DNA of 59,053 nt from an uncultured virus (IMG/VR IMGVR_UViG_3300025154_000055) (taxonomy: Duplodnaviria > Heunggongvirae > Uroviricota > Caudoviricetes): IMG/VR virus record IMGVR_UViG_3300025154_000055. One strand, given 5' to 3'. The position numbers and the translations under genes are program-made. Positions 2,424 through 18,257 of the stretch are shown piece by piece (within the stretch, counting starts at the first letter, position 1; every line of letters begins with the position of its first letter). Under the pieces are notes generated by a model, which had not been told where the DNA came from, did not search any database, and saw only the letters and a program-made list of their open reading frames with translations.

Positions 2424-2429
2424 GCTACA

Positions 2430-2513: not shown

Positions 2514-2517
2514 CTTG

Positions 2518-2815: not shown

Positions 2816-2907
2816 GTTCTGCGGTTCTCCGTCTGCCGTCCACTCCCACCGCAAGTCTTGCACATCGGCAGATAGTATTGACCAGACCAACACCCTTAAA
2901 GAGACAG

Positions 2908-2983
2908 TGCAAGGTGGCGGAGGCGAGCCGTGTCCTTCTTCCCCTTATCAGAGGGATGTTTCGTACCCCGAAACTGACCCTGC
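2908..2983 (-). tRNA. tRNA-Ile(GAT), degenerate T-arm
   Basis: GCAGGGT/ACCTTGC; TCCCT-CT-GAT-AA-GGGGA; weak T-arm CGG-CTCGCCT-CCG. Confidence 0.6.
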
Positions 2984-3053
2984 AAATGCGCGGTGTCTCC
3001 CATGCGAAGTTGATCAGTCAACACAAGTTCAACCATACTGCCGCGCCAGTAAG

Positions 3054-3125
3054 CAGACCCTCCCGATTTCGAGTCGGGACATGCGTCATCCAAAGTGACG
3101 TGCGCTACCTTTGCGCTAAGGGTCT
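3054..3125 (-). tRNA. tRNA-Gln(TTG)
   Basis: AGACCCT/AGGGTCT; loop CT-TTG-GA; T-loop CTCGAAA. Confidence 0.88.
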
Positions 3126-3131
3126 ATAAAG

Positions 3132-3222
3132 TGACTGCTATCTGATATTCCAATCGGGCTATCTTTCTCAGCACGCCATCTTCGCGTATTCGGACGATTT
3201 TGCCTCAGACCTGAAGCAGTCA
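3132..3222 (-). ncRNA. stem-closed structured RNA, unknown
   Basis: TGACTGCT/AGCAGTCA terminal stem plus inner TCTGA/TCAGA stem, between tRNA-Pro and tRNA-Gln. Confidence 0.45.
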
Positions 3223-3229
3223 GCGTAAG

Positions 3230-3304
3230 TCAGCGAAGAGGGATTTGAACCCCCGATCCCAAAGTCCCAAACTTTGTGCGTTGGCCGGTCTACGCTATTC
3301 GCTG
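3230..3304 (-). tRNA. tRNA-Pro(TGG)
   Basis: CAGCGAA/TTCGCTG; loop TT-TGG-GA; TTCAAAT. Confidence 0.92.
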
Positions 3305-3386
3305 TTTTGGTGGACGTTTTATGACGGAATGCGCCCTCCTCCGACATACTTCACGAATGTTTTCACTCAGAAGATATGTGAGCCAG

Positions 3387-3459
3387 TACCCCCACTCGGA
3401 CTTAAACCGAGATGTACAGATTAAAAGTCTGTCCCGTTATCAATTACGGACATGGAGGC
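3387..3459 (-). tRNA. tRNA-Lys(TTT)
   Basis: GCCTCCA/TGGGGGT; loop CT-TTT-AA; T-loop TTTAAGT. Confidence 0.87.
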
Positions 3460-3462
3460 GTG

Positions 3463-3537
3463 TGCATCCACCCCGATTTGAACGGGGACTAACTCGGTAA
3501 GGGCGAGCCATGCTGTGCCGTTGAACATTATGGATGC
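3463..3537 (-). tRNA. tRNA-Lys(CTT)
   Basis: GCATCCA/TGGATGC; loop CC-CTT-AC; TTCAAAT. Confidence 0.85.
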
Positions 3538-3657
3538 GTTTCTCGGTCGCTCAGGTCACTAGATTTGCATAGTCACTAAGTTCAGGTGTGCGTTTAGTAT
3601 CGGTGTGCCGATATTTCTTAGCGCATAACTTTCATCGCCCTCAATGACGACTGATTG

Positions 3658-3742
3658 CTGTGATGTGCAGAGTTGAACTGCAAGGCCATGACGACCACGT
3701 ACTTTCGAGATACGTCGGATGTGCCGATAATCCAACATCACA
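3658..3742 (-). tRNA. tRNA-Ser(CGA)
   Basis: TGTGATG/CATCACA, G73; loop CT-CGA-AA; long variable arm. Confidence 0.82.
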
Positions 3743-3748
3743 AAAGAG

Positions 3749-3834
3749 CGGTGAATAGAGTAGTCGAAACTCTGACCCTGTAACGGGCGCGGTATTTCCA
3801 ATACCGTTGGCTAAACCGACAAGCCGTATTCACC
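3749..3834 (-). tRNA. tRNA-Ser(GGA)
   Basis: GGTGAAT/ATTCACC, G73; loop TT-GGA-AA; long variable arm. Confidence 0.87.
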
Positions 3835-3840
3835 AAGTTA

Positions 3841-3955
3841 TTAGGGATTGCGACCGCGAGTTCCTGGCCCTATCGCGTCCTGTTTGATTCATCGTTGGCG
3901 GCACATATAGCCTTATCAGCACCGTTACCTTCTTCTCCACCAGAGCAATCCCTAA
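3841..3955 (-). ncRNA. stem-closed structured RNA, unknown
   Basis: perfect 11-bp terminal inverted repeat TTAGGGATTGC/GCAATCCCTAA filling the gap between two tRNA-Ser genes. Confidence 0.6.
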
Positions 3956-3958
3956 AGG

Positions 3959-4044
3959 CGGAAGCGGTGCGAGTTAAACGCACAGTCCCTTGCGGAACGC
4001 ACGGTTTCAAATCGTGCTAGAACTCTCGATATTCCAACGCTTCC
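3959..4044 (-). tRNA. tRNA-Ser(TGA)
   Basis: GGAAGCG/CGCTTCC, G73; loop TT-TGA-AA; long variable arm. Confidence 0.88.
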
Positions 4045-4145
4045 ATAGCATCTCGTTATCGCACGCCAGACGCCTAGCGCTTGCTTAAGGCGCGAAGAGC
4101 GACGGACTTTACCGTTGGATAGTTCTGCGGCGAACGTCCAGTGTA

Positions 4146-4218
4146 CACTCTCAGTCGGACTCGAACCGGCGTGAAATCGCTGAAAACGATCCATCCTAAG
4201 CCGCTAGATGATGAGAGT
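4146..4218 (-). tRNA. tRNA-Glu(TTC)
   Basis: ACTCTCA/TGAGAGT; loop TT-TTC-AG; TTCGAGT. Confidence 0.9.
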
Positions 4219-4271
4219 ATGGAGCAGGGCTGGCGTGGTCTTCGCCACGGAAGTTCCAGACACCTGCGTAT

Positions 4272-4348
4272 TGGGGTAGATGGAGGGACGTGCGCCCTCT
4301 ATAAACGGTTCCACAGACCGTCGCGGCACTATATTCGCCTCATCCACC
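4272..4348 (-). tRNA. tRNA-His(GTG)
   Basis: encoded G-1:C73 and CCA; loop CT-GTG-GA; T-loop CGCACGT. Confidence 0.88.
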
Positions 4349-4355
4349 ATGTTCT

Positions 4356-4530
4356 GCTAAATATCTGTAATCGAGAGTGGAACGGTCAAGGTTATCAGTT
4401 ATTCACGCTCTGGGAGAACTCCACGGGACACCTTTCGGTGTTTCTGCTTTCGCTTCGTCAGCCGAACCAGATGAGCGTCCAGATGTTTCCTGTCTCCGTT
4501 CCCGGCAACCCACGGTCACAGATATTTAAC
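4356..4530 (-). ncRNA. 175-nt rod with a central bubble, 6S RNA-like
   Basis: long closing stem (TAAATATCTGT..), GGAACGG/CCGTTCC stem, ~17/19-nt central bubble containing ACCTTGA, apical ACGCT/AGCGT stem. Confidence 0.5.
4405..4478 (-). ncRNA. type I hammerhead ribozyme core
   Basis: CGG-CUGACGA-A-GC-GAAA-GC-A-GAAAC-ACC-GAAA-GGU-GUC-CCG; predicted cleavage after GUC, between 4427 and 4426. Confidence 0.75.
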
Positions 4531-4533
4531 TTG

Positions 4534-4617
4534 CGGAGATGAGAATGCTCGAACTTCTAGTCCCTTTCGGAACGCCGCGTTAGCAGTGCGGTCGGAACAT
4601 CAATTTCCAACATCTCC
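4534..4617 (-). tRNA. tRNA-Ser(GCT)
   Basis: GGAGATG/CATCTCC, G73; loop CT-GCT-AA; long variable arm. Confidence 0.9.
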
Positions 4618-4841
4618 AGTTCGACTGATTGAGCGCGGGAATCATAGTACCTCTACCCTCTTTTAATGGTCTGCCGACCACTATCAGTCCATTCCCAAAT
4701 TATGTCATCCCCTTAAAGGAATCCTAATCATCACGTCCTGGGCAATCCGGCACGAGTCTGAGTCTGCGGTATCTAAGGTGTTACGTGCGTAGTCCCGCTG
4801 TATTCAGCGGCATACTTCTTGGGTTACAGATTGTACCCATG

Positions 4842-4915
4842 TGCGCCTCCCAGAACTCGAATCTGGACTCCTCCGTCCCGCGAACGGATGTGTTATCCAA
4901 TTACACCAGAGACGC
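4842..4915 (-). tRNA. tRNA-Arg(GCG)
   Basis: GCGTCTC/GAGGCGC; loop TC-GCG-GG; TTCGAGT. Confidence 0.85.
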
Positions 4916-5023
4916 ATTTGCAACCTTTGGTTGCCGTCGCCCATTGCATCACGCGATTTCATGAATTATGGTCTCGCGTTTTCAGTCATCTATCGATGGG
5001 GCGATAACCCCGATGACCTTGCA

Positions 5024-5096
5024 TGTCGGGTCTGGGAGTCGAACCCAGTTGAACGGAGCGTATGAGACTCCTGCCTTGCCGTTTGGCCTACCCGAT
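5024..5096 (-). tRNA. tRNA-Met(CAT), 1:72 mismatch (initiator-like)
   Basis: ATCGGGT/ACCCGAC; loop CT-CAT-AC; TTCGACT. Confidence 0.82.
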
Positions 5097-5101
5097 ACTG
5101 A

Positions 5102-5128
5102 ATCTCTATAGCGATTACTTGACATAAT
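5102..5128. repeat. 27-bp dispersed motif copy
   Basis: ATCTCTATAGCGATTACTTGACATAAT. Confidence 0.8.
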
Positions 5129-5132
5129 ACAA

Positions 5133-5277
5133 AATGTGTTGGGGCTGTGACTTCGACACGTCAAAACCTGCTGATCACTTGCCTCTTTTGCACTCTAGTC
5201 CGCTTTTACGTTGCGGCCCGCTAGTTCGTTTCCGATGAATAGCTGTATCCCTAGTCGCTCATGCAAGGCAACACATT
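5133..5277 (-). ncRNA. stem-closed multibranch RNA, unknown
   Basis: AATGTGTTG/CAACACATT terminal stem; nested GCCT/AGGC, TGCA/TGCA, CTAG/CTAG and CCGC/GCGG stems. Confidence 0.55.
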
Positions 5278-5290
5278 CTATTTCTGATAA

Positions 5291-5401
5291 AGATAGTGTC
5301 GGCGGAAGGCTTAGTATCACGCTGCTCCGCTTCCTGACCCGTGACGGTCTCCGAACTGTCCGCTATAAGGGTGCGACCCATATTCCAGACACGCACTATC
5401 T
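5291..5401 (-). ncRNA. 111-nt SRP(4.5S)-like RNA
   Basis: AGATAGTG/CACTATCT ends; rod ending in GUCACG-GG-UCAGG-aagcgg-AGCAG-CGUGAU, resembling the SRP helix 8 symmetric loop. Confidence 0.4.
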
Positions 5402-5403
5402 AG

Positions 5404-5476
5404 CAAGAGCGGTGGGACTTGCGCCCACTAAAACTGATTTTGGAGATCAGCCCCTATCTTCTTTGGGTTCGCCCTT
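5404..5476 (-). tRNA. tRNA-Trp(CCA)
   Basis: AAGGGCG/CGCTCTT, G73; loop CT-CCA-AA; T-loop CGCAAGT. Confidence 0.87.
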
Positions 5477-5484
5477 ATAGTTCT

Positions 5485-5528
5485 ATCTTACCCCAAGATG
5501 TTGAGTTAAGCAATGTTACTTAGGTACT
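5485..5528 (-). promoter_or_regulatory. internal sigma70-type promoter with upstream 15-bp box
   Basis: AGTACCTAAGTAACA-TTGCTT-17bp-TAAGAT just upstream of tRNA-Trp. Confidence 0.55.
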
Positions 5529-5530
5529 TG

Positions 5531-5604
5531 TGGAACAGATGGGATTTGCGCCCATAGAACCCTAATTTTGAATTAGAGATGTCTGCTAGTTGCATCACTG
5601 TTCC
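5531..5604 (-). tRNA. tRNA-Leu(CAA), short variable loop
   Basis: GGAACAG/CTGTTCC; loop TT-CAA-AA; 5-nt variable loop; T-loop CGCAAAT. Confidence 0.82.
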
Positions 5605-5607
5605 GTG

Positions 5608-5679
5608 TGGATCGTGGGGGAGTCGCGCCCCTCAAGACAAGAATATTGCAAGTATTCTCCGCTACCTCTATCCCGACCC
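5608..5679 (-). tRNA. tRNA-Ala(TGC), reduced D-arm
   Basis: G3:U70 pair and A73; loop CT-TGC-AA; no clear D-stem; T-loop CGCGACT. Confidence 0.7.
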
Positions 5680-5801
5680 GTATTGCTGGGAGCGACACGC
5701 CTGCCGCCCCCGTTGCTCTTGCAAGGTTCGCTTTCGCGTCCCAAGACCTCGCTACCACGCATGGTGGTTGAGACTTAAAACCTCAAGATAGACGACAATT
5801 T

Positions 5802-6137
5802 CTAGTTCAGCCGCTCAATCGTCTTACCGTTGTCGTTCAGTAAGTACACGCTCAAGTTAGACCCGATAATTACGCTTTTATCACCACGACTTGCGGTAAT
5901 AATAGCGCTTGTCGGGAATCCAACATTTCGCGCCACATTCAAGAATGTCTCATCGTATTGATCTAGCGGGATATTCGGATAACCGCTCACGGTATGATAC
6001 TCAACATTTTCGAGTCCATCCACGAATCGCCATCCCCCCTTCCATACTTCTTTAGTGTAGTTTCCGTCTCCATTCCCGTCCGATTCTGCGAGTTCGGGTA
6101 ACTGCCTGCCGTTCTCTGTTTCCATCTTGATAATCAT
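5802..6137 (-). CDS. hypothetical phage protein
   Basis: likely start MIIKMETENG with AGGAG RBS; the upstream extension in the ORF track overlaps tRNAs. Confidence 0.7.
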   Translation of the reverse strand: MIIKMETENGRQLPELAESDGNGDGNYTKEVWKGGWRFVDGLENVEYHTVSGYPNIPLDQYDETFLNVARNVGFPTSAIITASRGDKSVIIGSNLSVYLLNDNGKTIERLN

Positions 6138-6185
6138 CTGTCTTTCTCCTGTTCTGTCTCGCTGTCTGTCTATCTTGAGATTCAG

Positions 6186-6268
6186 TGGGCAATCAGTGAG
6201 TCGAACACTGCGTACTAAGTACACGGGTCTACAATCCGCTCCAACGATCCGATAGTTGGCTATTGCCC
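6186..6268 (-). tRNA. tRNA-Tyr(GTA)
   Basis: GGGCAAT/ATTGCCC; loop TT-GTA-GA; variable arm GTAC-TTA-GTAC. Confidence 0.9.
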
Positions 6269-6271
6269 AAG

Positions 6272-6346
6272 AGCTGATGGTCGAAGTCGAATCGACAATT
6301 ATGTTCCCGTACAGGGGGAGCGCCATACCAATTAGGCGACATCAGC
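6272..6346 (-). tRNA. tRNA-Thr(TGT)
   Basis: GCTGATG/CATCAGC; loop CC-TGT-AC; TTCGACT. Confidence 0.87.
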
Positions 6347-7002
6347 TAGAAACTCTTACCAGCTCTGTACCTTTCTTTTCTCGCCACTCTTCCATTTCCT
6401 CTGTTTTTACCTTTATATGTGTCAGTTTGCGCGTCACAATTTGGGCATATCAATCTAAGGTTACTTAGTCTATTATCGTATGGGTTTCCATCAATGTGAT
6501 CTACTATCAAGGGAATTTCTAAACCATTCCAAACCGATCCGTCGCATATTTCGCAAACATGCTTTCTTGTGGCGAGAATGGTTCTCCTGACGGACGGAGG
6601 TTCTATTTTTTCTCCGCCATTCATTTTTGATATATTTTCCAATATCCTGTTTTCAGATATGCACTTCATAGAACAGAACCTTTTGTAGTACGGGTTTTTT
6701 GTTGGAAGACCACACTGTTCACATATCGTATCTGGTTTTTTGTTTCTCGTCCTTCGTTTGTTATTGTAAGACGCAAAGCACGACGATCCGCAAAACACAT
6801 TTTTACCGAACGCGATCCCGCCACAGTTTTTGCATGGTTTATCGTGACGCTTGTGCCAATTTATATGATTAGTCATCGACACTCTAGCAATTGGCTTTCC
6901 GCACGAATCGCATTTTATCTTATCGGTTTTTCCACAATAAGATAAATGTCCCGCTACACTTCTCTTGGAATTAAATTCCCTGCCGCATTTTGGACAGTTC
7001 AT
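6346..7002 (-). CDS. HNH homing endonuclease with N-terminal zinc fingers
   Basis: multiple CxxC pairs; C-terminal VDHIDGNPYDNRLSNLRLICPNC. Confidence 0.9.
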   Translation of the reverse strand: MNCPKCGREFNSKRSVAGHLSYCGKTDKIKCDSCGKPIARVSMTNHINWHKRHDKPCKNCGGIAFGKNVFCGSSCFASYNNKRRTRNKKPDTICEQCGLPTKNPYYKRFCSMKCISENRILENISKMNGGEKIEPPSVRRTILATRKHVCEICDGSVWNGLEIPLIVDHIDGNPYDNRLSNLRLICPNCDAQTDTYKGKNRGNGRVARKERYRAGKSF

Positions 7003-7026
7003 ATCTCGACTCCAGTTTTGAATATA

Positions 7027-7055
7027 ATTGTACCACTGATTTCGGATATTGACAA
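7027..7055 (-). promoter_or_regulatory. sigma70-type promoter for the HNH gene
   Basis: TTGTCA-17bp-TACAAT with extended -10 TG. Confidence 0.6.
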
Positions 7056-7078
7056 CACTAAGTAGCGGAATCGGGATA

Positions 7079-7152
7079 AGAGACCGGTGGGATTTGAACC
7101 CATCATATCTAACTTGGAAGGATAGCGCCCTACCGGATTGGACGACGGTCTC
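7079..7152 (-). tRNA. tRNA-Gly(TCC)
   Basis: GAGACCG/CGGTCTC, U73; loop CT-TCC-AA. Confidence 0.9.
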
Positions 7153-7156
7153 GTTG

Positions 7157-7228
7157 ATCCAGAGACCCGAATTGAACGGGCGCTATTACTGTACGAAAGT
7201 AACGTCCTGCCGACTAGACGACTCTGGA
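7157..7228 (-). tRNA. tRNA-Thr(CGT)
   Basis: TCCAGAG/CTCTGGA; loop TT-CGT-AC. Confidence 0.87.
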
Positions 7229-7317
7229 ATGTTTTCAATTGTTAAGGAATGGCTGTTTCGCTATGCCAGTACAGCCATCGAAACTTCTGTAGGTCACGAG
7301 ATATAATCAGGCGACAG

Positions 7318-7392
7318 TGCCGACAGCAGAACTCGAATCTGCAAGCCCACGGGTTTAGGCCGTAGAGGTATGCCACTTCCCATCATGTCGGC
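7318..7392 (-). tRNA. tRNA-Leu(TAA), short variable loop
   Basis: GCCGACA/TGTCGGC; loop CC-TAA-AC; 5-nt variable loop. Confidence 0.82.
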
Positions 7393-7400
7393 GTTTCTGA

Positions 7401-7544
7401 ATAACTGTCACCGAGCGGAGAACTATACGGTCGTTCTCACACCCGCTGGTCAGGCGCTTTCTTATTGCTACCCTACATCGCAACCAACGATGATACTCTC
7501 GCAATGTGCTACGGGTTACACGTAGCCCGATCGGTGACAGTTAT
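7401..7544 (-). ncRNA. stem-closed multibranch RNA, unknown
   Basis: perfect 14-bp terminal stem ATAACTGTCACCGA/TCGGTGACAGTTAT plus three internal hairpins. Confidence 0.65.
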
Positions 7545-7554
7545 CCAAAATCAG

Positions 7555-7627
7555 AGCCAACAGGGGCGCTCGAATCCCCAACCTTATCTTTACCAAAGAT
7601 ACGTTCATCCATTTGAACTTTGTCGGC
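7555..7627 (-). tRNA. tRNA-Thr(GGT)
   Basis: GCCGACA/TGTTGGC; loop TT-GGT-AA. Confidence 0.9.
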
Positions 7628-7632
7628 AAAGG

Positions 7633-7704
7633 CGCGGATGATGGGTACTGGCCCCACTACTTATTCCTCGACAGGGAATCGCCTCGCTTTCCGGCTCCAC
7701 CCGC
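7633..7704 (-). tRNA. tRNA-Asp(GTC)
   Basis: GCGGGTG/CATCCGC, G73; loop CT-GTC-GA; T-loop GCCAGTA. Confidence 0.8.
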
Positions 7705-7713
7705 AGATACTAA

Positions 7714-7865
7714 AAACGCTTGTCGTTCCTTGCGGTTCGCCCAAGCGCCAATCCAATCCTTCAAGAGCGAAACCGCTACATCTTGTCCCCTGCGTCATGG
7801 CGCGTGACGAGATTCCCCAATTCGGGGGTATTCGCCAAAAACCAATTCTGATACGATAAGCGTTT
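7714..7865 (-). ncRNA. stem-closed multibranch RNA, unknown
   Basis: 13-bp terminal stem AAACGCTTATCGT/ACGACAAGCGTTT (one mismatch); starts just after the promoter at 7876-7904. Confidence 0.6.
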
Positions 7866-7875
7866 CATGTGAACA

Positions 7876-7904
7876 ATCATAAAGGATATTGCGACCGTTG
7901 TCAA
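7876..7904 (-). promoter_or_regulatory. strong sigma70-type promoter
   Basis: TTGACA-17bp-TATGAT. Confidence 0.75.
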
Positions 7905-7919
7905 TAGTCAATTTCAGTA

Positions 7920-8061
7920 AGATTGCGCGACTCCCGCGTTACCTCAGATTAGCCACATCGGGACGGTATCAGCGAGTGATTCTGAGAACTCCATCCACCG
8001 TTCGTCACGCCAAGTATCCAGTCCGCTTTTCGCAGTGGGAGGACATGCCGCCGCGCAATCT
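7920..8061 (-). ncRNA. stem-closed structured RNA, unknown
   Basis: 10-bp terminal stem AGATTGCGCG/CGCGCAATCT immediately 3' of tmRNA. Confidence 0.55.
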
Positions 8062-8063
8062 AG

Positions 8064-8374
8064 TGGAAATGTGGGGAGTCGAACCCCAGTCTCTCAGATT
8101 CCGGTTACATCATTCTTACGAGCGTGTCAGACTTTGAGAAAGTCTACGAAACAGGGATACCCTGACTTCGGTATCACTCCACCATCCGTCTTACTACTAG
8201 GCGACGGAAGCCTGTACTGCATTGCCGAATAACGCCTCGGCTAACGACGCCTGCGCGAAGGCAGGGTGTGTCAACTTGCTAGAGTTAGCATTTGATATTT
8301 GCGTTCATTAGGATTCAGAACGCCTACCGCTCGTGACGTTTTCCTTCCACTGAAATCGATTCCGGTTCATTCCC
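8064..8374 (-). ncRNA. ssrA: tmRNA
   Basis: acceptor GGGAATG/CATTTCC with G3:U70 and A73; GAC-T-arm; internal tag ORF 8289-8197 ANSSKLTHPAFAQASLAEALFGNAVQASVA followed by three stops. Confidence 0.93.
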
Positions 8375-8449
8375 ATGTACGCCGTTCTACGCTCTCGATT
8401 CGACTATGAACGGAAAACAGCCCCTATGTTTCGCTGGCATTAAGCCTTG

Positions 8450-8523
8450 TACCCCACGGAGAACTCGAATCTCCAACCTGCAAATTAGAAATTTGTCGCT
8501 CTGTCCAGTTGAGCTAGTGAGGC
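8450..8523 (-). tRNA. tRNA-Arg(TCT)
   Basis: GCCTCAC/GTGGGGT; loop TT-TCT-AA; TTCGAGT. Confidence 0.93.
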
Positions 8524-9979: not shown

Positions 9980-11210
9980 CGAACAGATTCTCGGAATGCC
10001 ACGTATCCGTACCGCTCAGAGATGGCAGAATCCTGACGCGAATACCGAACTTCTCCTCAACTTTTGTCTGGTGCTTATCGCCCGTGTGAATCTCTCGGTA
10101 AAGGGTTTGCCCCCAATCTTCGGGCCGCTCTGACGCCATGAGGGACGGGTAGTCCATGCGACGGCCTTTGTCCCCATGCGAGAATAGCAAGAGAACCTTT
10201 CCCCATCGTTCGTACTTCCGCGCAGACGGATCGTTATTGATCGTCACGTCCTTGTACTTATGGAACCAGCACTCCAAAGAGTCGCCCAAGTGCCACGCCG
10301 TCATTCGGTCGTGATTCCCCGGAACAACCAGCACCTTAACCGGAGCGATCTGCCGTAGCGTGTCAATCGCGTTTACCATGACTTCTCGGACAATCTTGAA
10401 CGTCCTGTGGTAGCGCGTGTCGCCGTCTACCTGAGTGCCAGAATAGGTGGTGTTCCCTGAGTTGTCGGTGTGAAACACGTCGTTCCCGACCACAAACAAT
10501 ACCTCGCCAAACTTGTAGGGTTCTACGCGAGACAGAAGAGTGGGGACTGCTTCCTCGAAGATTCGTCGGGCAATAGACACGTCATAGTCCTCGTATCCCG
10601 TCTGCAAGTGCCATCCAACTTTTCCAAAGTGCATATCGGGGAGGCACATTTCCAGCATATTATCAGACATCTTATTGGGGTATTTTATGGGCTTTACGGC
10701 AGGGGATACCAGTTTGGCCGCGATCTTGAGCGCGTCTATTTCTTTTCGCGCGTCCTCAATTTCCCTGCGCTTCTTGAGAGTTGCCCTGATGCTATTCAGA
10801 GGGGTAACGGTATAATCTCCGTCTCCATCTCGCAACCACATCTTCGAGTCGCCAGTCGCTTGCGTACCGTGAACGACCTCGTAGCGACTAATACGAAGTT
10901 CGGTAATCTCCCACAGTCCCATGTCTATCTGATACGCCTTGACTAACTCATCTTGGGTGCTAATAGGAGTTCTATCTAGTGAGATTGACCACGTATCCCC
11001 TTTGACGCTCTGCACATCGCGTGGGCTAGAGTTTGTTTGTGGTTTAACCACATTGGCCCGCATCCGAATACCACGCACCGCCTTGTCGGTAGTTTTGAAT
11101 CCCATTTTGCTCAATTGAGAAACAAGTTCCTTGTCCGTCCTCTCTCCGCCAATCTCAATAACGATTTCTCGTGCCGTTTTGCCGTTTTTTAAGGGGGAAT
11201 CCCAATTCAC
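9891..11210 (-). CDS. calcineurin-like metallophosphoesterase/nuclease
   Basis: DMHFG, GNDVFH, PGNHD, HGD and HTGDKH motifs. Confidence 0.88.
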   Translation of the reverse strand: MNWDSPLKNGKTAREIVIEIGGERTDKELVSQLSKMGFKTTDKAVRGIRMRANVVKPQTNSSPRDVQSVKGDTWSISLDRTPISTQDELVKAYQIDMGLWEITELRISRYEVVHGTQATGDSKMWLRDGDGDYTVTPLNSIRATLKKRREIEDARKEIDALKIAAKLVSPAVKPIKYPNKMSDNMLEMCLPDMHFGKVGWHLQTGYEDYDVSIARRIFEEAVPTLLSRVEPYKFGEVLFVVGNDVFHTDNSGNTTYSGTQVDGDTRYHRTFKIVREVMVNAIDTLRQIAPVKVLVVPGNHDRMTAWHLGDSLECWFHKYKDVTINNDPSARKYERWGKVLLLFSHGDKGRRMDYPSLMASERPEDWGQTLYREIHTGDKHQTKVEEKFGIRVRILPSLSGTDTWHSENLFVGNQRQAEAFVWNKEAGLLGTAIYTYTGR

Positions 11211-11240
11211 AGTAGTCTCCTAGTGCGGTTCATATCTTAA

Positions 11241-11315
11241 ATTATAGCGTTTTTTGAGCATATTGCAACAGTACCATGATACTTAATTGACACACCGTAC
11301 ATTTGCGCGTACAAT
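11241..11315. promoter_or_regulatory. divergent sigma70 promoters
   Basis: minus TTGCAA-16-TATAAT (11268-11241); plus TTGACA-17-TACAAT (11287-11315); GTAC box between them. Confidence 0.7.
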
Positions 11316-11316
11316 A

Positions 11317-11343
11317 ATTATGTCAACTAATCGCGTGAGAGAA
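11317..11343. repeat. 27-bp dispersed motif copy (inverted)
   Basis: reverse complement TTCTCTCACGCGATTAGTTGACATAAT. Confidence 0.8.
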
Positions 11344-11351
11344 AGGAACGC

Positions 11352-12038
11352 ATGAGTAAAAGCACAGAACTGAAGGATTATTGGAGCGACCCGGAACCGG
11401 AAGACCCGAAAACCACTCGGAAAGTAGCCTATGTCGCCAAAGATATAGACGACCGTAGCGGCGAGCAAAAGATTAACGAGAGAATAAAGAGTTACGAGAA
11501 CGACCTTGATGCCTCTAGTCTTACTGAGTCCGACCGGAGCCAGATTAAGAACTTGGCAAGATTAGAGGTCGGCATAGAGGCGTTTACAGAGAAGCTGAGT
11601 AACATTGGGGAATCTGACTCTAAGACCGCCAAATCACTCAGCGACACGCTATCGACCCTCATGGCCCAACACCGTCAGATTGCCTCTGCGCTGGGCATTG
11701 ACCGAAAGTCCCGATCCTCTCGCGGGGAGTCGGAATACGAGGAATACCTGCCACGCCTTCACAAGCAAGCATATAATTTTATGGCAGAGAAATCCATCGT
11801 TATCATGTGTCCCGTTTGTATTAACAACAAGGCACACACGAAGATTAACGAGGGGTTTATCGTTTTTCACTTCAGGGAAGATGTGGATTGGGAATGGCGC
11901 TCGGCGTGTCCGTCGTGCAAGCAGCAATTTGTGATTAACTACGGAAACTGGCAGAACTTCACCAGAGCGGCAATAAATAAGATTGGAAAACTAGATGGCA
12001 AGACCGAAGACGACTCAACCGAAGAATTCGACGCTTGA
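11352..12038 (+). CDS. probable terminase small subunit
   Basis: helical region ending ALGIDRKSR, C-terminal CxxC pairs, overlaps the start of TerL. Confidence 0.6.
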   Translation: MSKSTELKDYWSDPEPEDPKTTRKVAYVAKDIDDRSGEQKINERIKSYENDLDASSLTESDRSQIKNLARLEVGIEAFTEKLSNIGESDSKTAKSLSDTLSTLMAQHRQIASALGIDRKSRSSRGESEYEEYLPRLHKQAYNFMAEKSIVIMCPVCINNKAHTKINEGFIVFHFREDVDWEWRSACPSCKQQFVINYGNWQNFTRAAINKIGKLDGKTEDDSTEEFDA

Positions 12039-13785
12039 TACCACTATAGAAGAAATAGAAGACGTATCCTCGTCCAAAAACCCGATTGGGCGCTCCATGC
12101 TAGAGAAGGACGGCGAGTTCTCTCTTGGAATGATTCTGTGCGACCAGATTCTCTTTTCGCTATTCTACCAACAGCGTGATCTTTCTCTTGGGCTTAGTTT
12201 TGAACAGAAATTAATGTTCGCAGATGAGTCTAAGCGCGTCCTTTTATGTACTTCACGTAGCGTTGCCAAGACAGTCGGTATCGTTGGACGCATTTCCCGC
12301 GATGCCGTGACGTATCTTCCAGACCCAAGATCGAGAGACGACGAAATTCTAACCGTAACTCCGACTTCTGGGCATATGAGCCAATTAGCAGACCGCGTGT
12401 TCTCTAAGTTGAAAGAGAATATCTTGTTCAGTTCTCTTATCAAAACATGGCACAGAAGTTCAGAGTCTCAAAAAATCGCAACAAACAACGGGTTGACCAT
12501 TCATTTCAGAATCGAAGGGTCTATCGATGATCGGAATATGACTGGCCCGCACCCTCATAAAATCTATTGCGACGAGATGGCCTTCGGGAATTTTGCGTGT
12601 CACCGTTCTCGTGCGGGTGGGGCAAAACCAACCTGCCAATGGTTGTATGCGGGAGTTCCGAATGGCGTCCGAGATACACCATTCTATCAATTAGACCAGA
12701 CTCACGACGGAGACTCATGGAGTCGTCATCGGGCGTCAATGATCACCGCGAATCCATTATATACGAGTTCTCCCGGATACGCGAAGGAGATGGAAGACCT
12801 CTTCGGAGGAGTATTCTCGCAAGACTATCATACTCAGGTTCAAGGAGAATGGGGCAGTGAGGCGATTTCGTCCTTTAATGCGGGGACTATCTCGTTCAAC
12901 AAGACAGTGGGACAACCCAATGGGTACAAATACTACATTGCGAGAGCAGCATCAGGAGATGTTGAGAAAGCGATCAACACGAGCAAGTTGTACGAACTTC
13001 TCAGAATCCCTAGCGTCAATCCACTTAGGGCTGTAATTGGGTGGGACTACGGTGAGTCTCCTGACCCCACCACGTTCCTACTTGCCGTCCAATACGCAGA
13101 TAAGACACCGTGGCAGACTTACGCGAGAATATCCCTTTACGGCGTTCCATCTCCTCGCCAATTAGAAGTCCTTCAACACCTTTGGGAAAACACCCTTAAT
13201 CGAAAGTGCGTCATGCTGTCTATGGACAATAAGGTTCAGTATCACTACATGATGGAGGATAAATACAAGGCGCTATTTGAGGGCAAAATTAAGATGACCC
13301 AGTTCAATAGCACGGTCGAGATTGATATGGTCACGGGCAAAATGGTCACGGAAACCAATAAAGACGACCAGATCGTGCTAGAACACCGAAAAGATGGCAA
13401 GATCATTAAGGACTGGCGCAAGTATCTTCTCACCGAACAACTCAAGCGGTACATGCTGAGTCATATATACGGGGATACGGAACACACTAGACTTGAGTTG
13501 GGGTACGACCCTGATATGGAGAACGAACTATTGGGAACCGTAGAGCGCCGAACCATGTCCCACGTGGTTTACGATACGCCGAAAGTAAAGTCGAACAAAA
13601 ACTCACCAAAACCAGATCAAATTGTGGACGCTTTACGCGCATTAACGGATGCAATACTCGTAGTAGATTCTGAAAAACCAGATGAGGTTCCACAAGATAT
13701 TTCGGCCATGCTCGCCAGTTTTGGTTGGACGGGCAGCAACACGTCACTCAGTAAGGGATGGCGTCAACCGTGGCAGAACAGGTAG
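11995..13785 (+). CDS. terL: terminase large subunit
   Basis: Q-motif SFEQ, Walker A TSRSVAKT, Walker B IYCDEMA, GVPNG, nuclease IGWDYG and DQIVDALR. Confidence 0.88.
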   Translation: MARPKTTQPKNSTLDTTIEEIEDVSSSKNPIGRSMLEKDGEFSLGMILCDQILFSLFYQQRDLSLGLSFEQKLMFADESKRVLLCTSRSVAKTVGIVGRISRDAVTYLPDPRSRDDEILTVTPTSGHMSQLADRVFSKLKENILFSSLIKTWHRSSESQKIATNNGLTIHFRIEGSIDDRNMTGPHPHKIYCDEMAFGNFACHRSRAGGAKPTCQWLYAGVPNGVRDTPFYQLDQTHDGDSWSRHRASMITANPLYTSSPGYAKEMEDLFGGVFSQDYHTQVQGEWGSEAISSFNAGTISFNKTVGQPNGYKYYIARAASGDVEKAINTSKLYELLRIPSVNPLRAVIGWDYGESPDPTTFLLAVQYADKTPWQTYARISLYGVPSPRQLEVLQHLWENTLNRKCVMLSMDNKVQYHYMMEDKYKALFEGKIKMTQFNSTVEIDMVTGKMVTETNKDDQIVLEHRKDGKIIKDWRKYLLTEQLKRYMLSHIYGDTEHTRLELGYDPDMENELLGTVERRTMSHVVYDTPKVKSNKNSPKPDQIVDALRALTDAILVVDSEKPDEVPQDISAMLASFGWTGSNTSLSKGWRQPWQNR

Positions 13786-13801
13786 TGCGTGGTATAATAG
13801 C

Positions 13802-13910
13802 ACCCAACGGCCTCGGCGTCAGCCGATTGCCGACTTAGAGTTTTGACTGTCATCAGCCTGAGCGCCCGACCCCGCGCTACTTGGCAATTCGGCTGCACGC
13901 CGTGTTGGGC
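13802..13910 (-). repeat. attC site 5
   Basis: GCCCAAC-ACGGC-GTGCAGCCG...CGGCTGAC-GCCGAGGCC-GTTGGGT. Confidence 0.85.
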
Positions 13911-14052
13911 GGCTGCTTGCAATAAAAGAGGAACAACGGCCCTGACACATCTGACACGGCCCGATGCGTTTTACGAAGCCGCCCGATGCTGCGAACCTGA
14001 AATGCTGAGACTTCCTGTGACCACAATTCTGACAGACCGAATTACCGTGCAT
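13819..14052 (-). CDS. cassette ORF, small Cys/His-rich protein
   Basis: CQNCGH..H..CQMC..C; stop lies inside attC5. Confidence 0.65.
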   Translation of the reverse strand: MHGNSVCQNCGHRKSQHFRFAASGGFVKRIGPCQMCQGRCSSFIASSRPTRRAAELPSSAGSGAQADDSQNSKSAIG

Positions 14053-14061
14053 AGAGTTGCC

Positions 14062-14171
14062 GTCTAACGGCCCCGGCGTCAGCCGCCGCGCACCGTGCTA
14101 GATTTTCGGCTGGTCGATTTGGCGCTCTTGCGCTTGGCTACTGGCGCGGTCGGCTGCACGCCGTGTTGGGC
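14062..14171 (-). repeat. attC site 4
   Basis: GCCCAAC-ACGGC-GTGCAGCCG...CGGCTGAC-GCCGGGGCC-GTTAGAC. Confidence 0.87.
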
Positions 14172-14330
14172 GGCGTCCAATTTCTCAGCGTCGCGCATGG
14201 CACGATCCCAGTCAAACCAGTTAATCCCGCCACGCTTAACGATGTACTGCGCACATTCAAAGCGAGTCGTCTTTCCGCCATTGATAACACGGATAGTCCA
14301 ACCGCCCAACCCTTCATCTGTTTTGATCAT
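14079..14330 (-). CDS. cassette ORF, hypothetical
   Basis: GGAGG RBS, MIKTDEG; reads into attC4. Confidence 0.65.
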   Translation of the reverse strand: MIKTDEGLGGWTIRVINGGKTTRFECAQYIVKRGGINWFDWDRAMRDAEKLDAAQHGVQPTAPVAKRKSAKSTSRKSSTVRGG

Positions 14331-14348
14331 TTGTCCTCCAAGAAAGCC

Positions 14349-14452
14349 GCCCAACGGCCCCGGCGTCAGCCGCCGCGACCTGCTACATTTTCAATGTCGG
14401 TTGAATCGCTGGCCGACGCATGATCGGCGGTCGGCTGCACGCCGTGTTGGGC
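14349..14452 (-). repeat. attC site 3
   Basis: GCCCAAC-ACGGC-GTGCAGCCG...CGGCTGAC-GCCGGGGCC-GTTGGGC. Confidence 0.87.
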
Positions 14453-14635
14453 GGCGGCCTGTTCAACAACGACTTTCAGCGTTGCGTCATATAGCGCTGG
14501 CGCGCACGCTGCGCACGCGAAAATCCAGCCAACCATATTGCCATTTGCGCGATGTGGTATCAGGCATATGTTTTCTGTCTTAGCGCACGATATGCAATGA
14601 GCGATGAATGGCCGTTCAATTTTTCTGATCTTCAT
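14366..14635 (-). CDS. cassette ORF, zinc-ribbon hypothetical
   Basis: GGAGG RBS, MKIRKIE, CISC/CAAC; reads into attC3. Confidence 0.65.
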   Translation of the reverse strand: MKIRKIERPFIAHCISCAKTENICLIPHRANGNMVGWIFACAACAPALYDATLKVVVEQAAAQHGVQPTADHASASDSTDIENVAGRGG

Positions 14636-14659
14636 GATTTCCTCCGGGCGAAAGATGCC

Positions 14660-14749
14660 GCCCAACGATTCGCGTAAGCGGCGGGCGCTCACGCACTGGT
14701 GGATTTACGCGCCCTCGGTGCGCCCGTCCGCTTGACGCGAGGGTTGGGC
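14660..14749 (-). repeat. attC site 2
   Basis: GCCCAAC-CCTCG-CGTCAAGCGG...CCGCTTACG-CGAATC-GTTGGGC. Confidence 0.88.
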
Positions 14750-15051
14750 CGCGCTGGTGGAAAAGGAAGTTCCCAGTTTTGCTCAATAATGGCCCAGTCA
14801 ATTTCTTCTGGTTTTAGTTCGCTGTTTCCGGCCTGCAAAACTAAAACAAACTGGTCGCGCATTGGCTTGAAGCCCAAAACTTGTTTCAGTCCATGCTCTT
14901 TGACTCCAATTTGAAACGGGGGAAATTCCATAAAAAACTGGGTAACGACGCAATTAGCGCAAAGCCCTTCGCTTGCACGTCTAAACGGACGTGCTTCGCT
15001 ATTTTCTGATTTTCCAGGCCTTGCTGGCCTGTGGCAACGCTGGCATTCCAT
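14689..15051 (-). CDS. cassette ORF, zinc-ribbon hypothetical
   Basis: AGGAG RBS, CQRC/CANC; reads into attC2. Confidence 0.7.
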   Translation of the reverse strand: MECQRCHRPARPGKSENSEARPFRRASEGLCANCVVTQFFMEFPPFQIGVKEHGLKQVLGFKPMRDQFVLVLQAGNSELKPEEIDWAIIEQNWELPFPPARPNPRVKRTGAPRARKSTSA

Positions 15052-15075
15052 AGAGACTCCTATTTACGAGAAGCG

Positions 15076-15181
15076 GCCCAACGACCTCGGCTTCACCCGC
15101 CGCCACCGACCCAACTGCCGATGGTCAACCGTAACGCTCAACTCCGGCATGATCGGCGGTCGGGTGCAATCCGTGTTGGGC
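15076..15181 (-). repeat. attC site 1
   Basis: GCCCAAC-ACGGA-TTGCACCCG...CGGGTGAA-GCCGAGGTC-GTTGGGC. Confidence 0.85.
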
Positions 15182-15193
15182 GCTGGAGAGTCT

Positions 15194-15228
15194 GGGGTGA
15201 CTGGTGGAGAGAGATCACCAGTCACCCC
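15194..15228 (-). terminator. 13-bp perfect hairpin after ssb
   Basis: GGGGTGACTGGTG/CACCAGTCACCCC; no U tract. Confidence 0.5.
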
Positions 15229-15239
15229 GATAGTTTCAC

Positions 15240-15605
15240 CTAGAACTCTGGTTCTGAATCCTCGGACTCTTCTTGCTTCTTTTCGCCCTTATTGTCTCCG
15301 GTGAACTCAAAATCCGTCACGACAATCTCGATAGATACGCCAGTACCACCATCGCGTTTCTCGTAAGTCACGACTTTCTGGCGACCAGATAGAGCGAACG
15401 TCGTTCCGCCCTTAATGAACTTGGACAGCGATTCGGCCTGTTTTCCGAAGAGTACCGCCTGAAAGTTGTTGAACTCCGGTTTCTCTTTTGTGCCTACATT
15501 CTTCGAGAACCGTAACTTCAGAACAGCCGTACCGCTTGGAGCATAGACCATACTAACGTGTTCGTCGTCCTTGATTTTCCCTGTTACGTGAGCGATAACT
15601 GACAT
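15240..15605 (-). CDS. ssb: single-stranded DNA-binding protein
   Basis: OB-fold pattern (FGKQAESL..KG..SGR..YEKRDG) and acidic C-terminus ending EPEF. Confidence 0.9.
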   Translation of the reverse strand: MSVIAHVTGKIKDDEHVSMVYAPSGTAVLKLRFSKNVGTKEKPEFNNFQAVLFGKQAESLSKFIKGGTTFALSGRQKVVTYEKRDGGTGVSIEIVVTDFEFTGDNKGEKKQEESEDSEPEF

Positions 15606-15622
15606 GCTATTCTCCTGTGAGA

Positions 15623-17785
15623 TTAGATTTTCTTTTCAACGTCGTCTTTGAACAAAAACGTCACAACCGCGCTACTTTGAGTCTTGAAACCCGTCACGGG
15701 AACGATATATTCCGCCTCTGCCGTGTTGTGATATTTCTTCCAGTGTCCACCGAGCGCAATGGCGTATCGTCTCGCGTTAATGTCTGCATCGATATGGCGC
15801 TTCTTGTCTTTAAGGATGGTGATCCGGTCGTTCAACCACTGAATTGCCGCGCCCGTTGACTTGGGCATTGCGTCCATATCCGATTGACCCAACATCATCA
15901 TATCGCCCGTGAAGTTCATCTTCTTGTTACCCTTGACCATCTCAGCGAAGTCCTTCATAGTTACGGGACTCGTCTTGGAAACCTTAATCTCGAAGGTGCG
16001 AATCTTCATCACGTCTGTAGCGTCTTCCTCAACCATCGGAGGCGAATACGAACCGTCAGACTTGATGCCACACTCTGATAGGAACGCCTCCTGTTCGGGA
16101 GTCATCGTCACAGGGCGCTTGAACTCTTTATTTGGGTCGAGTTCGTCCAACTTCGCCCTGAGAACCTTTAAGGTGTTGCCGACGATGGCAGACTCAACGG
16201 ACTTCTTCGCCAGATCGTCCCAATTACATGCCGTCTTGCCGCGAACACGATTACAGGCAGGGACGGCGGATAAGTCTAAGACATGAATAACAGAACCGTC
16301 GTCCTTTTTGATGGATTCTGCGATAGCACCGATTCTGTCCAACTCCCGGAAAGTGGCGTACCCAACGCTTACGGGTAGTCTGGTTACATTCGGCAGGGCG
16401 TTCGCAATCACGTTGTACGTTCGGAAGATACTGGAGTTGAACACCTTCGGAAGCCCGACCGATTCTCGCGTGACTCCGTTCTCCTCATCGGGCAATTCAA
16501 CCGTACCCGGAATGTTGACACCCACACTAATATTGAGTTCTTTCGAGTTCCCGACAAGACCAGAAGAGATAGGAACAGACACATTCTCGTCTGCCTTGAA
16601 CTCTGGATACCCGTCCTTGACTTTACTGACACGACCGATACGCTTGTACTTGAACTCCTTGTGACGCGGGTATAGACGCGCTTCGGGGTCGTTCTGCAAT
16701 AGCGTCAGTAGGTCAATCAAGTCGAAGGCATCCTCTTTTGGCGCACATCCCTTCTTCTGACCTTTCAAGAACCTTTTCGTAATATCCGTAGCGGCATCCT
16801 GAATCATGGACTCCACTTCACCGAACTCTTTGTTCGTGATAGCAGAACCCAACTTCTCGACAATCGCCACGTCCCCTACATCACCTAGAATGGACAAAGC
16901 GCCATCTACGTCCCCACTTTGCAGAGACAGCAGTGCAGTTGCGTAGACGGGTTGATAGGGGTCAACCATCTTGGACGCGACCATAGACGCAACGGGTTTC
17001 CCGTCTGATTTGCTCGTCACGAAATAGACGCTCGTGCCAGTCGGGGCAGTCACCACACCGTTTTCCACGGAGTAGATGACCACGCGCCCGTTTTCGATAG
17101 CGAAGGCGGCGTCAGAACCCGCAGGGAGCGTAATCGTTGTGCGCTTCTTGCCCTGCTTGACGACAATCTTGCCCAATGCCTTGCCAAAGTCCCGAATCTC
17201 GTCAGCGTGTTGCAATGTAGCACCCAACGCTTGCGCCATCTCGGTCATAAGCTGACGGTTATATCCATCCGAATATCCCACTAAGAGACCCGATGAAATC
17301 TGTCCCTTAATGTCCTTAATGGCGTTAAAGATTGCCTTCTTCTCGCGGTCGTAGGACGGCACAACAGGGTATCCATCTGTCAGGAAAACCAATTCAACGG
17401 TATCCACAAGGGGCGCAACATCCGCAATGACCGTGGGGACGTTCGCCAGAATCTCGCTAAAGCACGTTGTATTTCGGGAACGCGCATTGCTCTGGATAAT
17501 CTTGGCAACGGCATCATAATCCCTTTGGTCAACTACACGAGTGCCCTTGACGAACCACCGATAATCCCCAACACCGCTGAAATACCCCACCGTCATGAAG
17601 TCGCCCGATGGGACTTCTTTCAGGTGCGTACACATATCGTCTGCTACTTGCTGAGTATAGTAGCCCATACTGCCGCTCTGGTCAACGACCCAAATGTGAT
17701 GCTTTCGTTGCGAGACCTGAGTCTTCTCGCTCTCTGCGGGATGAATCACCCCTACGAATTTGTTCCCAATCGGCCAATAACTCAT
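15623..17785 (-). CDS. von Willebrand factor A domain protein
   Basis: MIDAS DQSGSM and FLTDG. Confidence 0.82.
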   Translation of the reverse strand: MSYWPIGNKFVGVIHPAESEKTQVSQRKHHIWVVDQSGSMGYYTQQVADDMCTHLKEVPSGDFMTVGYFSGVGDYRWFVKGTRVVDQRDYDAVAKIIQSNARSRNTTCFSEILANVPTVIADVAPLVDTVELVFLTDGYPVVPSYDREKKAIFNAIKDIKGQISSGLLVGYSDGYNRQLMTEMAQALGATLQHADEIRDFGKALGKIVVKQGKKRTTITLPAGSDAAFAIENGRVVIYSVENGVVTAPTGTSVYFVTSKSDGKPVASMVASKMVDPYQPVYATALLSLQSGDVDGALSILGDVGDVAIVEKLGSAITNKEFGEVESMIQDAATDITKRFLKGQKKGCAPKEDAFDLIDLLTLLQNDPEARLYPRHKEFKYKRIGRVSKVKDGYPEFKADENVSVPISSGLVGNSKELNISVGVNIPGTVELPDEENGVTRESVGLPKVFNSSIFRTYNVIANALPNVTRLPVSVGYATFRELDRIGAIAESIKKDDGSVIHVLDLSAVPACNRVRGKTACNWDDLAKKSVESAIVGNTLKVLRAKLDELDPNKEFKRPVTMTPEQEAFLSECGIKSDGSYSPPMVEEDATDVMKIRTFEIKVSKTSPVTMKDFAEMVKGNKKMNFTGDMMMLGQSDMDAMPKSTGAAIQWLNDRITILKDKKRHIDADINARRYAIALGGHWKKYHNTAEAEYIVPVTGFKTQSSAVVTFLFKDDVEKKI

Positions 17786-17993
17786 TCCTTGTCCTCCGTG
17801 TTCTTCGCCATGATAACCGCCAACAACAGACTACTCATCTACTCCGACTCGATTATCAACCCCGCCAAAACCATACCAATGGACGGACTCTCGTCATGGT
17901 CGTGGTTCTTGTATGCCATCTTTAATGTCTCAGTTAGTTTCTGAGATTGGCGAAAGGCGTAGGATAGATAGTCGGAGTCGTGAAATGCCATGT

Positions 17994-18257
17994 CTACTTC
18001 TTTGAGACGCTACTCGACTTAACGAAGTATGCGCCAATAAATCCCAGTGTTCCGCACAGTAGGGGAAGTTGCGCCAGAGTCACCTCTAGGCGAAGAAGCG
18101 CAAGACCGGCTACCACCCAATTACCCGCAAAGACTAACACATTGGAGAGAATCCATCCCGTAAACGCGCCCATCAGGAAATAGAACACTGGGAGAATCAG
18201 GACTAACGCGCCAATGCCCAATAACGCCAATACGCCAACTGCAATATCGCCCCTCAT
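17994..18257 (-). CDS. small membrane protein
   Basis: 2-3 hydrophobic segments, AGGAG RBS. Confidence 0.7.
   Translation of the reverse strand: MRGDIAVGVLALLGIGALVLILPVFYFLMGAFTGWILSNVLVFAGNWVVAGLALLRLEVTLAQLPLLCGTLGFIGAYFVKSSSVSKK

Follow-up and report, generated by a model that had tools for sequence, protein, structure and literature searches.

The 59,053-nucleotide stretch of DNA analysed here (hereafter the window, meaning the stretch at its full length) belongs to an uncultured virus of the Caudoviricetes (IMG/VR record IMGVR_UViG_3300025154_000055). At positions 13798–15185 it carries five attC sites and four small gene cassettes (A to D), a 1388-nt block (1.39 kb) placed in the short 3'-3' spacer between the gene for the large terminase subunit (terL, + strand) and that for a protein that binds single-stranded DNA (ssb, - strand). 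This block is an integron cassette array without an integrase, or CALIN (cluster of attC sites lacking integron-integrases), in a phage. Its attC sites are of a Chloroflexota type, the phage is from groundwater, and the junctions of the array were probably made by the integrase of a host. A host integron integrase would then act in trans on the phage DNA during infection, making the array junctions, and through the same enzyme the phage could still gain, lose or rearrange cassettes. The attC sites are listed below, with bit scores from a covariance model (CM).

13798–13914, + strand: attC5; 94.6 bits on the + strand versus 19.6 on the - strand; fold of -31.8 kcal/mol, z -4.39
13798–13808: R' half-site at the far end of attC5 (L5); crossover probably between 13807 and 13808
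14058–14175, + strand: attC4; 107 bits
14345–14456, + strand: attC3; 125 bits; fold of -38.6 kcal/mol, z -4.26
14656–14753, + strand: attC2; 68.6 bits; shorter and of a different subtype
15072–15185, + strand: attC1; 103.7 bits on the + strand versus 19.2 on the - strand; the first site on the cassette-coding strand
15175–15185 and 15072–15082: half-sites of attC1, R'' and R' respectively, the latter belonging to cassette A

A CALIN comprises at least two clustered, co-oriented attC sites with no intI gene nearby, and this is what was observed when 65 open reading frames (ORFs) of the 59-kb window were scanned. The array is classed as a CALIN because no match to PF00589, nor any tyrosine recombinase, was found among these ORFs. 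Nor did the window contain the complete integron arrangement of intI, attI and the cassette promoter Pc adjoining the array; upstream of attC1 on the cassette strand lie a hairpin and ssb.

The five sites are imperfect palindromes of 98–118 nt (90–110 nt from core to core, with an unconserved centre), each bounded by an inverse core RYYYAAC (R'') and a core GTTRRRY (R'). On the + strand every site has a ...YYYAAC core at its start and GTTGGGC at its end, and a search with the paired-core pattern returned two exact matches where none was expected. All five adopt a common fold consisting of an R-box terminal stem, an asymmetric internal loop, a second stem and a variable centre, with single-stranded folding energies of -28.5 to -38.6 kcal/mol (z -2.5 to -4.4, + strand). 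Their alignment contains 27 consensus pairs, seven of which show compensatory changes. The CM, which was built from these five window sites, scored them at 68.6–125 bits on the + strand versus 18.8–34.4 bits on the - strand, and found no further match elsewhere in the 59-kb window. At its gathering thresholds Rfam reported tRNAs and tmRNA only, and nothing was concluded from the missing attC match.

The second stem contains two single-base bulges, which lie on the 3' arm of the + strand in all five folds; the bulged bases are C and T. In class 1 and Vibrio cholerae repeat (VCR) sites the bulged bases are T and G. The bottom strand of an attC site carries the extrahelical bases, and crossover takes place at G|TT of R'. 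Some of these rules are restated by Qi et al. 2023 (PMC9892861). Because extrahelical bases mark the bottom strand, the + strand of the window was taken as the bottom strand, with the cassettes read on the - strand. In attC4 the left core, GTCTAAC, pairs with GTTGGGC through a G:T pair on the + strand only, and its R box likewise folds on the + strand and not on the - strand.

A 21-mer of the conserved attC arm was found at 19 loci in a collection of species-representative genomes, 16 of them titled Chloroflexota (Thermoflexales, Anaerolineae, Promineifilaceae and Chloroflexia), and in no viral contig. The CM gave 33 matches in those genome loci, in the form of co-oriented arrays, and IntI (TIGR02249) scored above its cut-off in four of the five attC-bearing genomes tested versus none of 14 control genomes. 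Judged by these matches, the window sites belong to the integron attC family of chromosomal arrays in IntI-encoding Chloroflexota. Members of this phylum (Anaerolineae, Thermoflexales) are the probable hosts of the phage, because the attC family is the one used in the arrays of their IntI-bearing genomes. Chloroflexi reportedly feature in the paper describing IntegronFinder.

The original prediction had placed the array between the ssb hairpin and the terL stop, where two transcription units converge; this position was confirmed, with terL (+) and ssb (-) converging on the array and a 13-bp hairpin beside it. The flanking features are:

11995–13785, + strand: terL, large terminase, 596 aa; native C-terminus with the stop (13783–13785) intact
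13786–13797: spacer of 12 nt from the terL stop to the outer end of attC5
15194–15228: hairpin behind the ssb stop, with a perfect 13-bp stem and a 9-nt loop
15240–15605, - strand: ssb, 121 aa; acidic tail ending in F intact

At both of its outer ends the array stops exactly where an attC does, which leaves 12 nt up to the terL stop on one side and 8 nt up to the ssb hairpin on the other. The junctions appear to be integrase-made because both ends fall so precisely; random capture of a host array would, by our estimate, rarely end so neatly on both sides. That an integrase recombines these particular sites is a prediction from their sequence. The same layout, with five attC sites and cognate outer halves, could be obtained with no attC previously resident in the phage if a multi-cassette circle, excised by IntI from a host array, had been joined to the phage illegitimately and broken inside a fifth cassette, the outer halves being the ends of that cassette. 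Phages commonly acquire host DNA by illegitimate recombination. A similar route to a phage CALIN is raised as a possibility by Qi et al. (PMC9892861), in which terminator repeats resembling GTTRRRY would recombine off target, either homologously or illegitimately. The remnant of the fifth cassette, however, would measure at most 22 nt on one side and 8–54 nt on the other, which by estimate is unlikely for random breaks in cassettes of 260–416 nt, and capture of a split cassette is considered distinctly improbable. Hairpin-directed breakage is another possible origin of the array.

The original prediction had proposed instead that an attC resident in the phage served as the landing pad, an ancestor having possessed a single site (the body of attC1 plus the far R' half) into which cassettes A–D were inserted by attC x attC recombination. 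The layout fits such an insertion. The four cassettes are accompanied by five attC sites, and the array begins and ends exactly with one of them; the upstream (ssb) side showed none of the bare GTTRRRY cores that insertion at a non-attC site would predict; and the far half-site retains a canonical GTTGGGT core. The arms of attC1, which are 84–92% identical to those of attC3, also differ from the near-identical arms of attC3–5, pairing being preserved by compensatory changes. Deletion of 13808–15081 (1274 nt) joins the attC1 body to the far R' half; the claim that removal of the cassettes rebuilds one attC is correct in this sense, and it is equally true of any attC-bounded array.

The evidence for the resident site had been drawn from complementarity of the outer half-sites. 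The sequences quoted for them are present where they were said to be: on the - strand R'' of attC1 (R1) reads CAGCGCCCAAC (15175–15185), the far R' (L5) GTTGGGTGCTA (13798–13808) and the adjacent R' (L1) GTTGGGCCGCT (15072–15082). Gapless pairing of R1 with the left halves of the five sites, as Watson-Crick plus G:T pairs out of 11, was:

far half L5: 9 + 1
adjacent half L1: 7 + 1
L2: 8 + 2
L3: 8 + 1
L4: 6 + 4

The far half is thus the best gapless partner of R1, as had been claimed, with a lead of one pair over the next; this degree of matching is at chance level and the preference is reversed when energies are considered. Random 5-mers of the window matched the pairing with the outer five bases of R1 in 4.5–9.6% of 200,000 draws. 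Family background was taken from a CM-based alignment of 22 host attC sites from Chloroflexota arrays, in which pairing at a minimum of 9 of 11 positions was reached with R1 by 5 of 20 left halves and with L5 by 6 of 21 right halves; among 400 non-self combinations of unrelated half-sites of the family, 22.8% scored at least 9. The R1 11-mer is identical to that of two sites in an Anaerolineae array and hence is ordinary host-type sequence. If a one-base bulge is allowed, the adjacent half L1 gains four extra pairs with R1, and the duplex energies of R1 are -12.1 kcal/mol with L1, -12.1 with L3, -11.5 with L2 and -9.3 with L5.

Whole-site minimum free energies (MFE) agree with the duplex energies, the present attC1 folding at -28.5 kcal/mol versus -25.7 for the less stable site rebuilt from the outer halves. 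For none of the four true cassettes does the adjacent half pair better than the cassette's own R' (own/adjacent MFE -39.6/-33.6, -38.7/-38.6, -43.0/-36.1 and -32.4/-31.8). R'' of attC2, for instance, forms a perfect 10-bp pairing with 15072–15081, the start of its own cassette A (10 + 0 pairs, -15.9 kcal/mol, versus 9 + 1 and -10.5 for the adjacent half). The phage backbone is the only one of the five "cassettes" whose own pair is energetically worse than the adjacent one. Complementarity between the outer half-sites is uninformative on ancestry, being typical of any two halves in this attC family.

Relatives of the phage were distant. A phage collection searched with the region (nucleotide) and with terL (protein) yielded no match, and the 720-aa product of a neighbouring gene had relatives of only 26–29% identity, for example in Rhizobium phages. 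Single-protein locus searches of viral contigs found nothing, and relatives were recovered through alignment; the relative loci compared all have less than 50% terL identity, while a homologue of 64% identity lies on a 2-kb contig. None of 29 such loci (312,790 bases) matched the attC CM at E values up to 1, and three whole viral records likewise gave no match. Twenty loci extend 150 nt or more past the terL stop (three pairs of them being the same contigs from two collections); a paired-core motif within 600 nt was found in none, the window as control giving two.

The convergent terL/ssb junction was retained in one relative, L006, a distant one with 49% terL identity, in which the terL stop is at 1687 and the ssb stop at 1719 on the opposite strand. 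The 31-nt spacer contains no attC and only a 7-bp hairpin, of which the hairpin at 15194–15228 in the window is likely the counterpart. Relatives without an attC at this site had been named as the finding that would count against a resident attC, and this single syntenic locus, distant as it is, is of that kind. Compared with L006, the convergent junction was ancestrally tight, and the array has been inserted into it, after the terL stop and short of the hairpin that the two have in common. An effect of SSB on attC hairpins is reportedly the subject of a published study. The adjacency of ssb looks ancestral, predating the array rather than being linked to attC, because ssb occupies the same junction in the attC-free relative. 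With the half-sites at background and relatives free of attC, a resident attC is a tentative alternative, possible and somewhat doubtful, to junctions made by a host integrase on a phage that had no such pad.

Several relatives have other unusual features. The same terL relative occurs twice, 132,033 nt apart, on one contig of 264,808 nt (L009/L010), presumably because a genome of approximately 132 kb was assembled head to tail. In L013 the terL match is split by approximately 375 nt (10417–10793). Some terL homologues (L004, P0027, P0038) are interrupted or lengthened, and two of 876 and 950 aa carry Hint and intein/LAGLIDADG-type Pfam domains, which suggests inteins or introns in the terminase genes of these relatives.

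It had also been proposed that a circular phage genome bearing an attC is formally a giant cassette, which might use IntI to integrate at attI or attC of the host, much as other phages exploit XerCD. The formal status of the backbone as a cassette is a consequence of its attC-bounded topology and is no evidence for IntI-mediated integration. Formal precedents are given in PMC9892861: whole plasmids carrying one attC, including attC sites of virulent phages, integrate at attI1 in the standard assay, and a Vibrio anguillarum prophage, Va_90-11-286_p16, is reported to lie between two attC sites, IntI having been suggested as the enzyme that excises it. The contigs of four sequencing runs were aligned to positions 11000–18000, bearing in mind that contigs drop rare variants and that the runs other than the source are low-depth contig sets which leave the array partly uncovered and are uninformative on cassette-free variants. 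No joints or alternative junctions were found in them, and none of the loose ends listed falls at the outer crossovers, 13807/13808 or 15081/15082. The terminase was not found when 401 genomes were sampled from the class to which one attC-bearing metagenome-assembled genome belongs, an absence that applies to this sample.

The gene content points in the same direction, as no repressor or integrase was present among the ORFs scanned and the phage has the equipment of a large replication-autonomous virus (clamp, SSB, RNase H, 22 tRNAs and tmRNA). A complete 124-kb relative with terminal repeats (G404) encodes its own 321-aa Xer-like tyrosine recombinase (L057, 1109–2074), which scored 113 bits on XerC versus 30 bits on TIGR02249 (cut-off 265) and is not an IntI. 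Integration of the whole genome as a lifestyle found no support and is very improbable. Somewhat less far-fetched, and still unlikely, is that the phage keeps a working attC pad at which the integrase of its Chloroflexota host loads and unloads cassettes in trans in the course of infection, with occasional whole-genome cointegrates at host attC or attI as a by-product.

Host cassettes might in principle have been threaded into a phage contig by the assembler through shared attC repeats. The arms of attC3–5 share identical runs of approximately 25 bases, and the loose ends at 14149/14183 and 13913 show that these attC arms also occur in different surroundings within contigs of the groundwater runs. 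The contigs, however, relied on words of 31 letters, which exceed the shared runs in length, and by the CM the outer arms of attC1 and attC5 are unique in the window. The source contig spans 11000–17836, including the whole array, and a contig from an independent run, of another study, covers 14668–15361 (attC2, cassette A, attC1, the hairpin and ssb) with zero differences, which argues against a chimeric assembly. The exact proteins of cassettes A and C were moreover present on 11 and 10 contigs, respectively. An artefact of assembly is hardly credible.

Certain observations weigh against the view that the array was made by the integrase of a Chloroflexota host. Three of the 19 21-mer loci are titled Bryobacterales, Clostridiales and Rhodoferax, and the host was assigned from one line of evidence, the shared attC family. 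The phage genome is at least 121 kb in length and may encode an integrase outside the 59-kb window. No contig with a cassette gained or lost was seen in the four runs. R1 and L5 are reciprocal best gapless partners among the five phage sites, as a resident attC would have it. A first attC must at some point have entered a phage with attC-free relatives, and a resident attC only shifts this problem back, as that site too would have had to enter an attC-free phage.

A possible route for a first cassette and attC into an attC-free replicon is attC x attG recombination by a host IntI; in Loot et al. (bioRxiv 10.1101/2022.09.11.507474) cassettes insert outside att sites at GWT, and single attC sites lacking integron-integrases (SALINs) are described. 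Such an event leaves a bare TT... cassette start fused to GWT upstream, whereas here the upstream end is a complete attC. Two candidate insertion sites on the ssb side were considered. The only GWT on the cassette strand between the ssb stop and attC1 is in the hairpin loop, and it was rejected because one arm of the perfect 13-bp stem would then be cassette-derived. The other, a GTT in the last ssb codons, was set aside as the SSB tail ending in F is native.

From crossover to crossover, cassettes A–D measure 416, 311, 287 and 260 nt. Every cassette ORF preceded by a ribosome-binding site (RBS) is on the - strand:

14689–15051, - strand: cassette A ORF, 120 aa; uncharacterised family of small proteins with four cysteines
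14366–14635, - strand: cassette B ORF, 89 aa; GGAGG RBS; tail and TGA stop within attC3
14079–14330, - strand: cassette C ORF, 83 aa; GGAGG RBS; C-terminal tail and TGA stop within attC4
13808–14067: cassette D, 260 nt, with a candidate ORF at 13819–14052 (- strand, 77 aa, CxxC...CxxC)

The RBS of cassettes A, B and C is GGAG or GGAGG; the ORF of cassette D has no clear RBS and its coding status is uncertain. None of the four proteins matched NCBIfam, Pfam or PHROGs. A word-index search with the cassette A protein returned only itself. Its family is widespread, with 229 representatives at E<=1e-3, 41 of which also pass E<=1e-10, and a length of approximately 100–130 aa; C3, R5, C6, C31, C34, W86 and W93 are invariant in 30 sequences. 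No Pfam family fits it, and comparison of its profile with PDB sequences gave nothing usable. For cassette C a single homologue (64% identity) was found on a 798-nt metagenome contig. The ORFs of B and C extend approximately 90 nt into their attC sites (14366–14456 and 14079–14175), share the attC-encoded tail AAQHGVQPTA, and stop at the same TGA, within the conserved GGCGTCAGCC of the attC left arm.

The flanking genes were also characterised. The terL product had no Pfam, PHROG or NCBIfam match, and a PDB search with its profile was not usable. Its AlphaFold model (alignment A1, pLDDT 64.6) matched the large terminases of D6E, T4 (gp17), HK97 and Sf6 with E-values of 1.7e-12 to 1e-8, and by this predicted fold the 596-aa protein is a large terminase. 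W589, P592 and W593, near its C-terminus, are conserved in 15 homologues. The product of ssb matched PF00436 (1.2e-07) and phrog_44 (4.3e-12). The hairpin behind this gene has no T run and was negative as an intrinsic terminator. At 13770–13798 (+ strand) there is a promoter-like GTGGCA-17-TATAAT with an extended -10 TG (TGgTATAAT, in the 12-nt spacer), a match to consensus only, which abuts the outer end of attC5 and is directed into the array, against the sense of the cassettes.

Contigs that encode the exact terminase protein reach 121 kb, and the runs containing the stretch are groundwater metagenomes. In addition to 22 tRNAs and a tmRNA, the phage encodes an SbcCD-type exonuclease, a DNA polymerase III beta clamp, RNase H, Dam, several HNH endonucleases, a sugar/fatty-acid modification cluster, a major head protein and a tape measure. 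The bank of 22 tRNAs and the tmRNA, with a tag peptide of 30 residues, occupies 1008–8523 (- strand), HNH endonuclease genes (460–981 and 6346–7002) being interspersed with it. The sugar/lipid modification cluster (30403–40904, + strand) specifies several glycosyltransferases, a GNAT protein, an FdtA/WxcM-like isomerase, a short-chain dehydrogenase, a KAS III-like enzyme, a MaoC dehydratase and a methyltransferase. A ferritin/rubrerythrin-like protein is encoded just ahead of the head genes (44682–45212, + strand).

Small filamentous single-stranded DNA phages and elements of the CTX-phi type use host XerCD at dif, and their integration has been demonstrated. The concept they have in common with the window phage is that of a mobile genome dependent on a tyrosine recombinase of the host and on a site folded from a single strand; for the window phage, integration of this kind is a proposal made from sequence. 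Closer parallels are found in Qi et al. (PMC9892861), where CALINs are described in virulent phages and IntI1 recombined five of six virulent-phage attC sites. In Tetrasphaera phage TJE1 and Pseudoalteromonas phage PH101, as here, a co-oriented attC-bounded array is accompanied by neither IntI nor visible lysogeny genes, and the cassettes encode small proteins of unknown function (PMC9892861). The array of TJE1, like the present one, is beside a terminator-type hairpin, and a phage CALIN adjoining a terminator with inverted GTTRRRY motifs is described in the same text (PMC9892861). Unlike those of TJE1 and PH101, the present array is composed of the attC family of Chloroflexota arrays, is located exactly in the terL/ssb convergent spacer, and belongs to an uncultured phage, known here from its sequence alone, whose genome measures 121 kb or more and includes 22 tRNA genes and one for tmRNA.

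Of the published cases, the prophage Va_90-11-286_p16 comes nearest to a phage genome enclosed by attC sites; according to PMC9892861 it is proven to be temperate, is integrated in the chromosomal integron of its host and carries intIA. In contrast, no integrated form, IntI or host junction was found for the window phage in the four runs, the 401 genomes and the 59-kb window.

A search of the literature on phages, attC and integrons did not return any account of a phage with an array of the Chloroflexota type. With this locus, the phage CALINs published in 2023 are joined by one from an uncultured phage of groundwater and from what is probably a new host phylum. Little is known in the Chloroflexota of mobile integrons carried on plasmids. 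If host integrases do edit the arrays of lytic-type phages, such phages would constitute a route of cassette transfer in phyla of this kind, and the small cassette proteins would be candidates for functions useful to the phage. Were the phage to keep a working attC pad, a large virulent-type phage would be a regular shuttle of cassettes between hosts.

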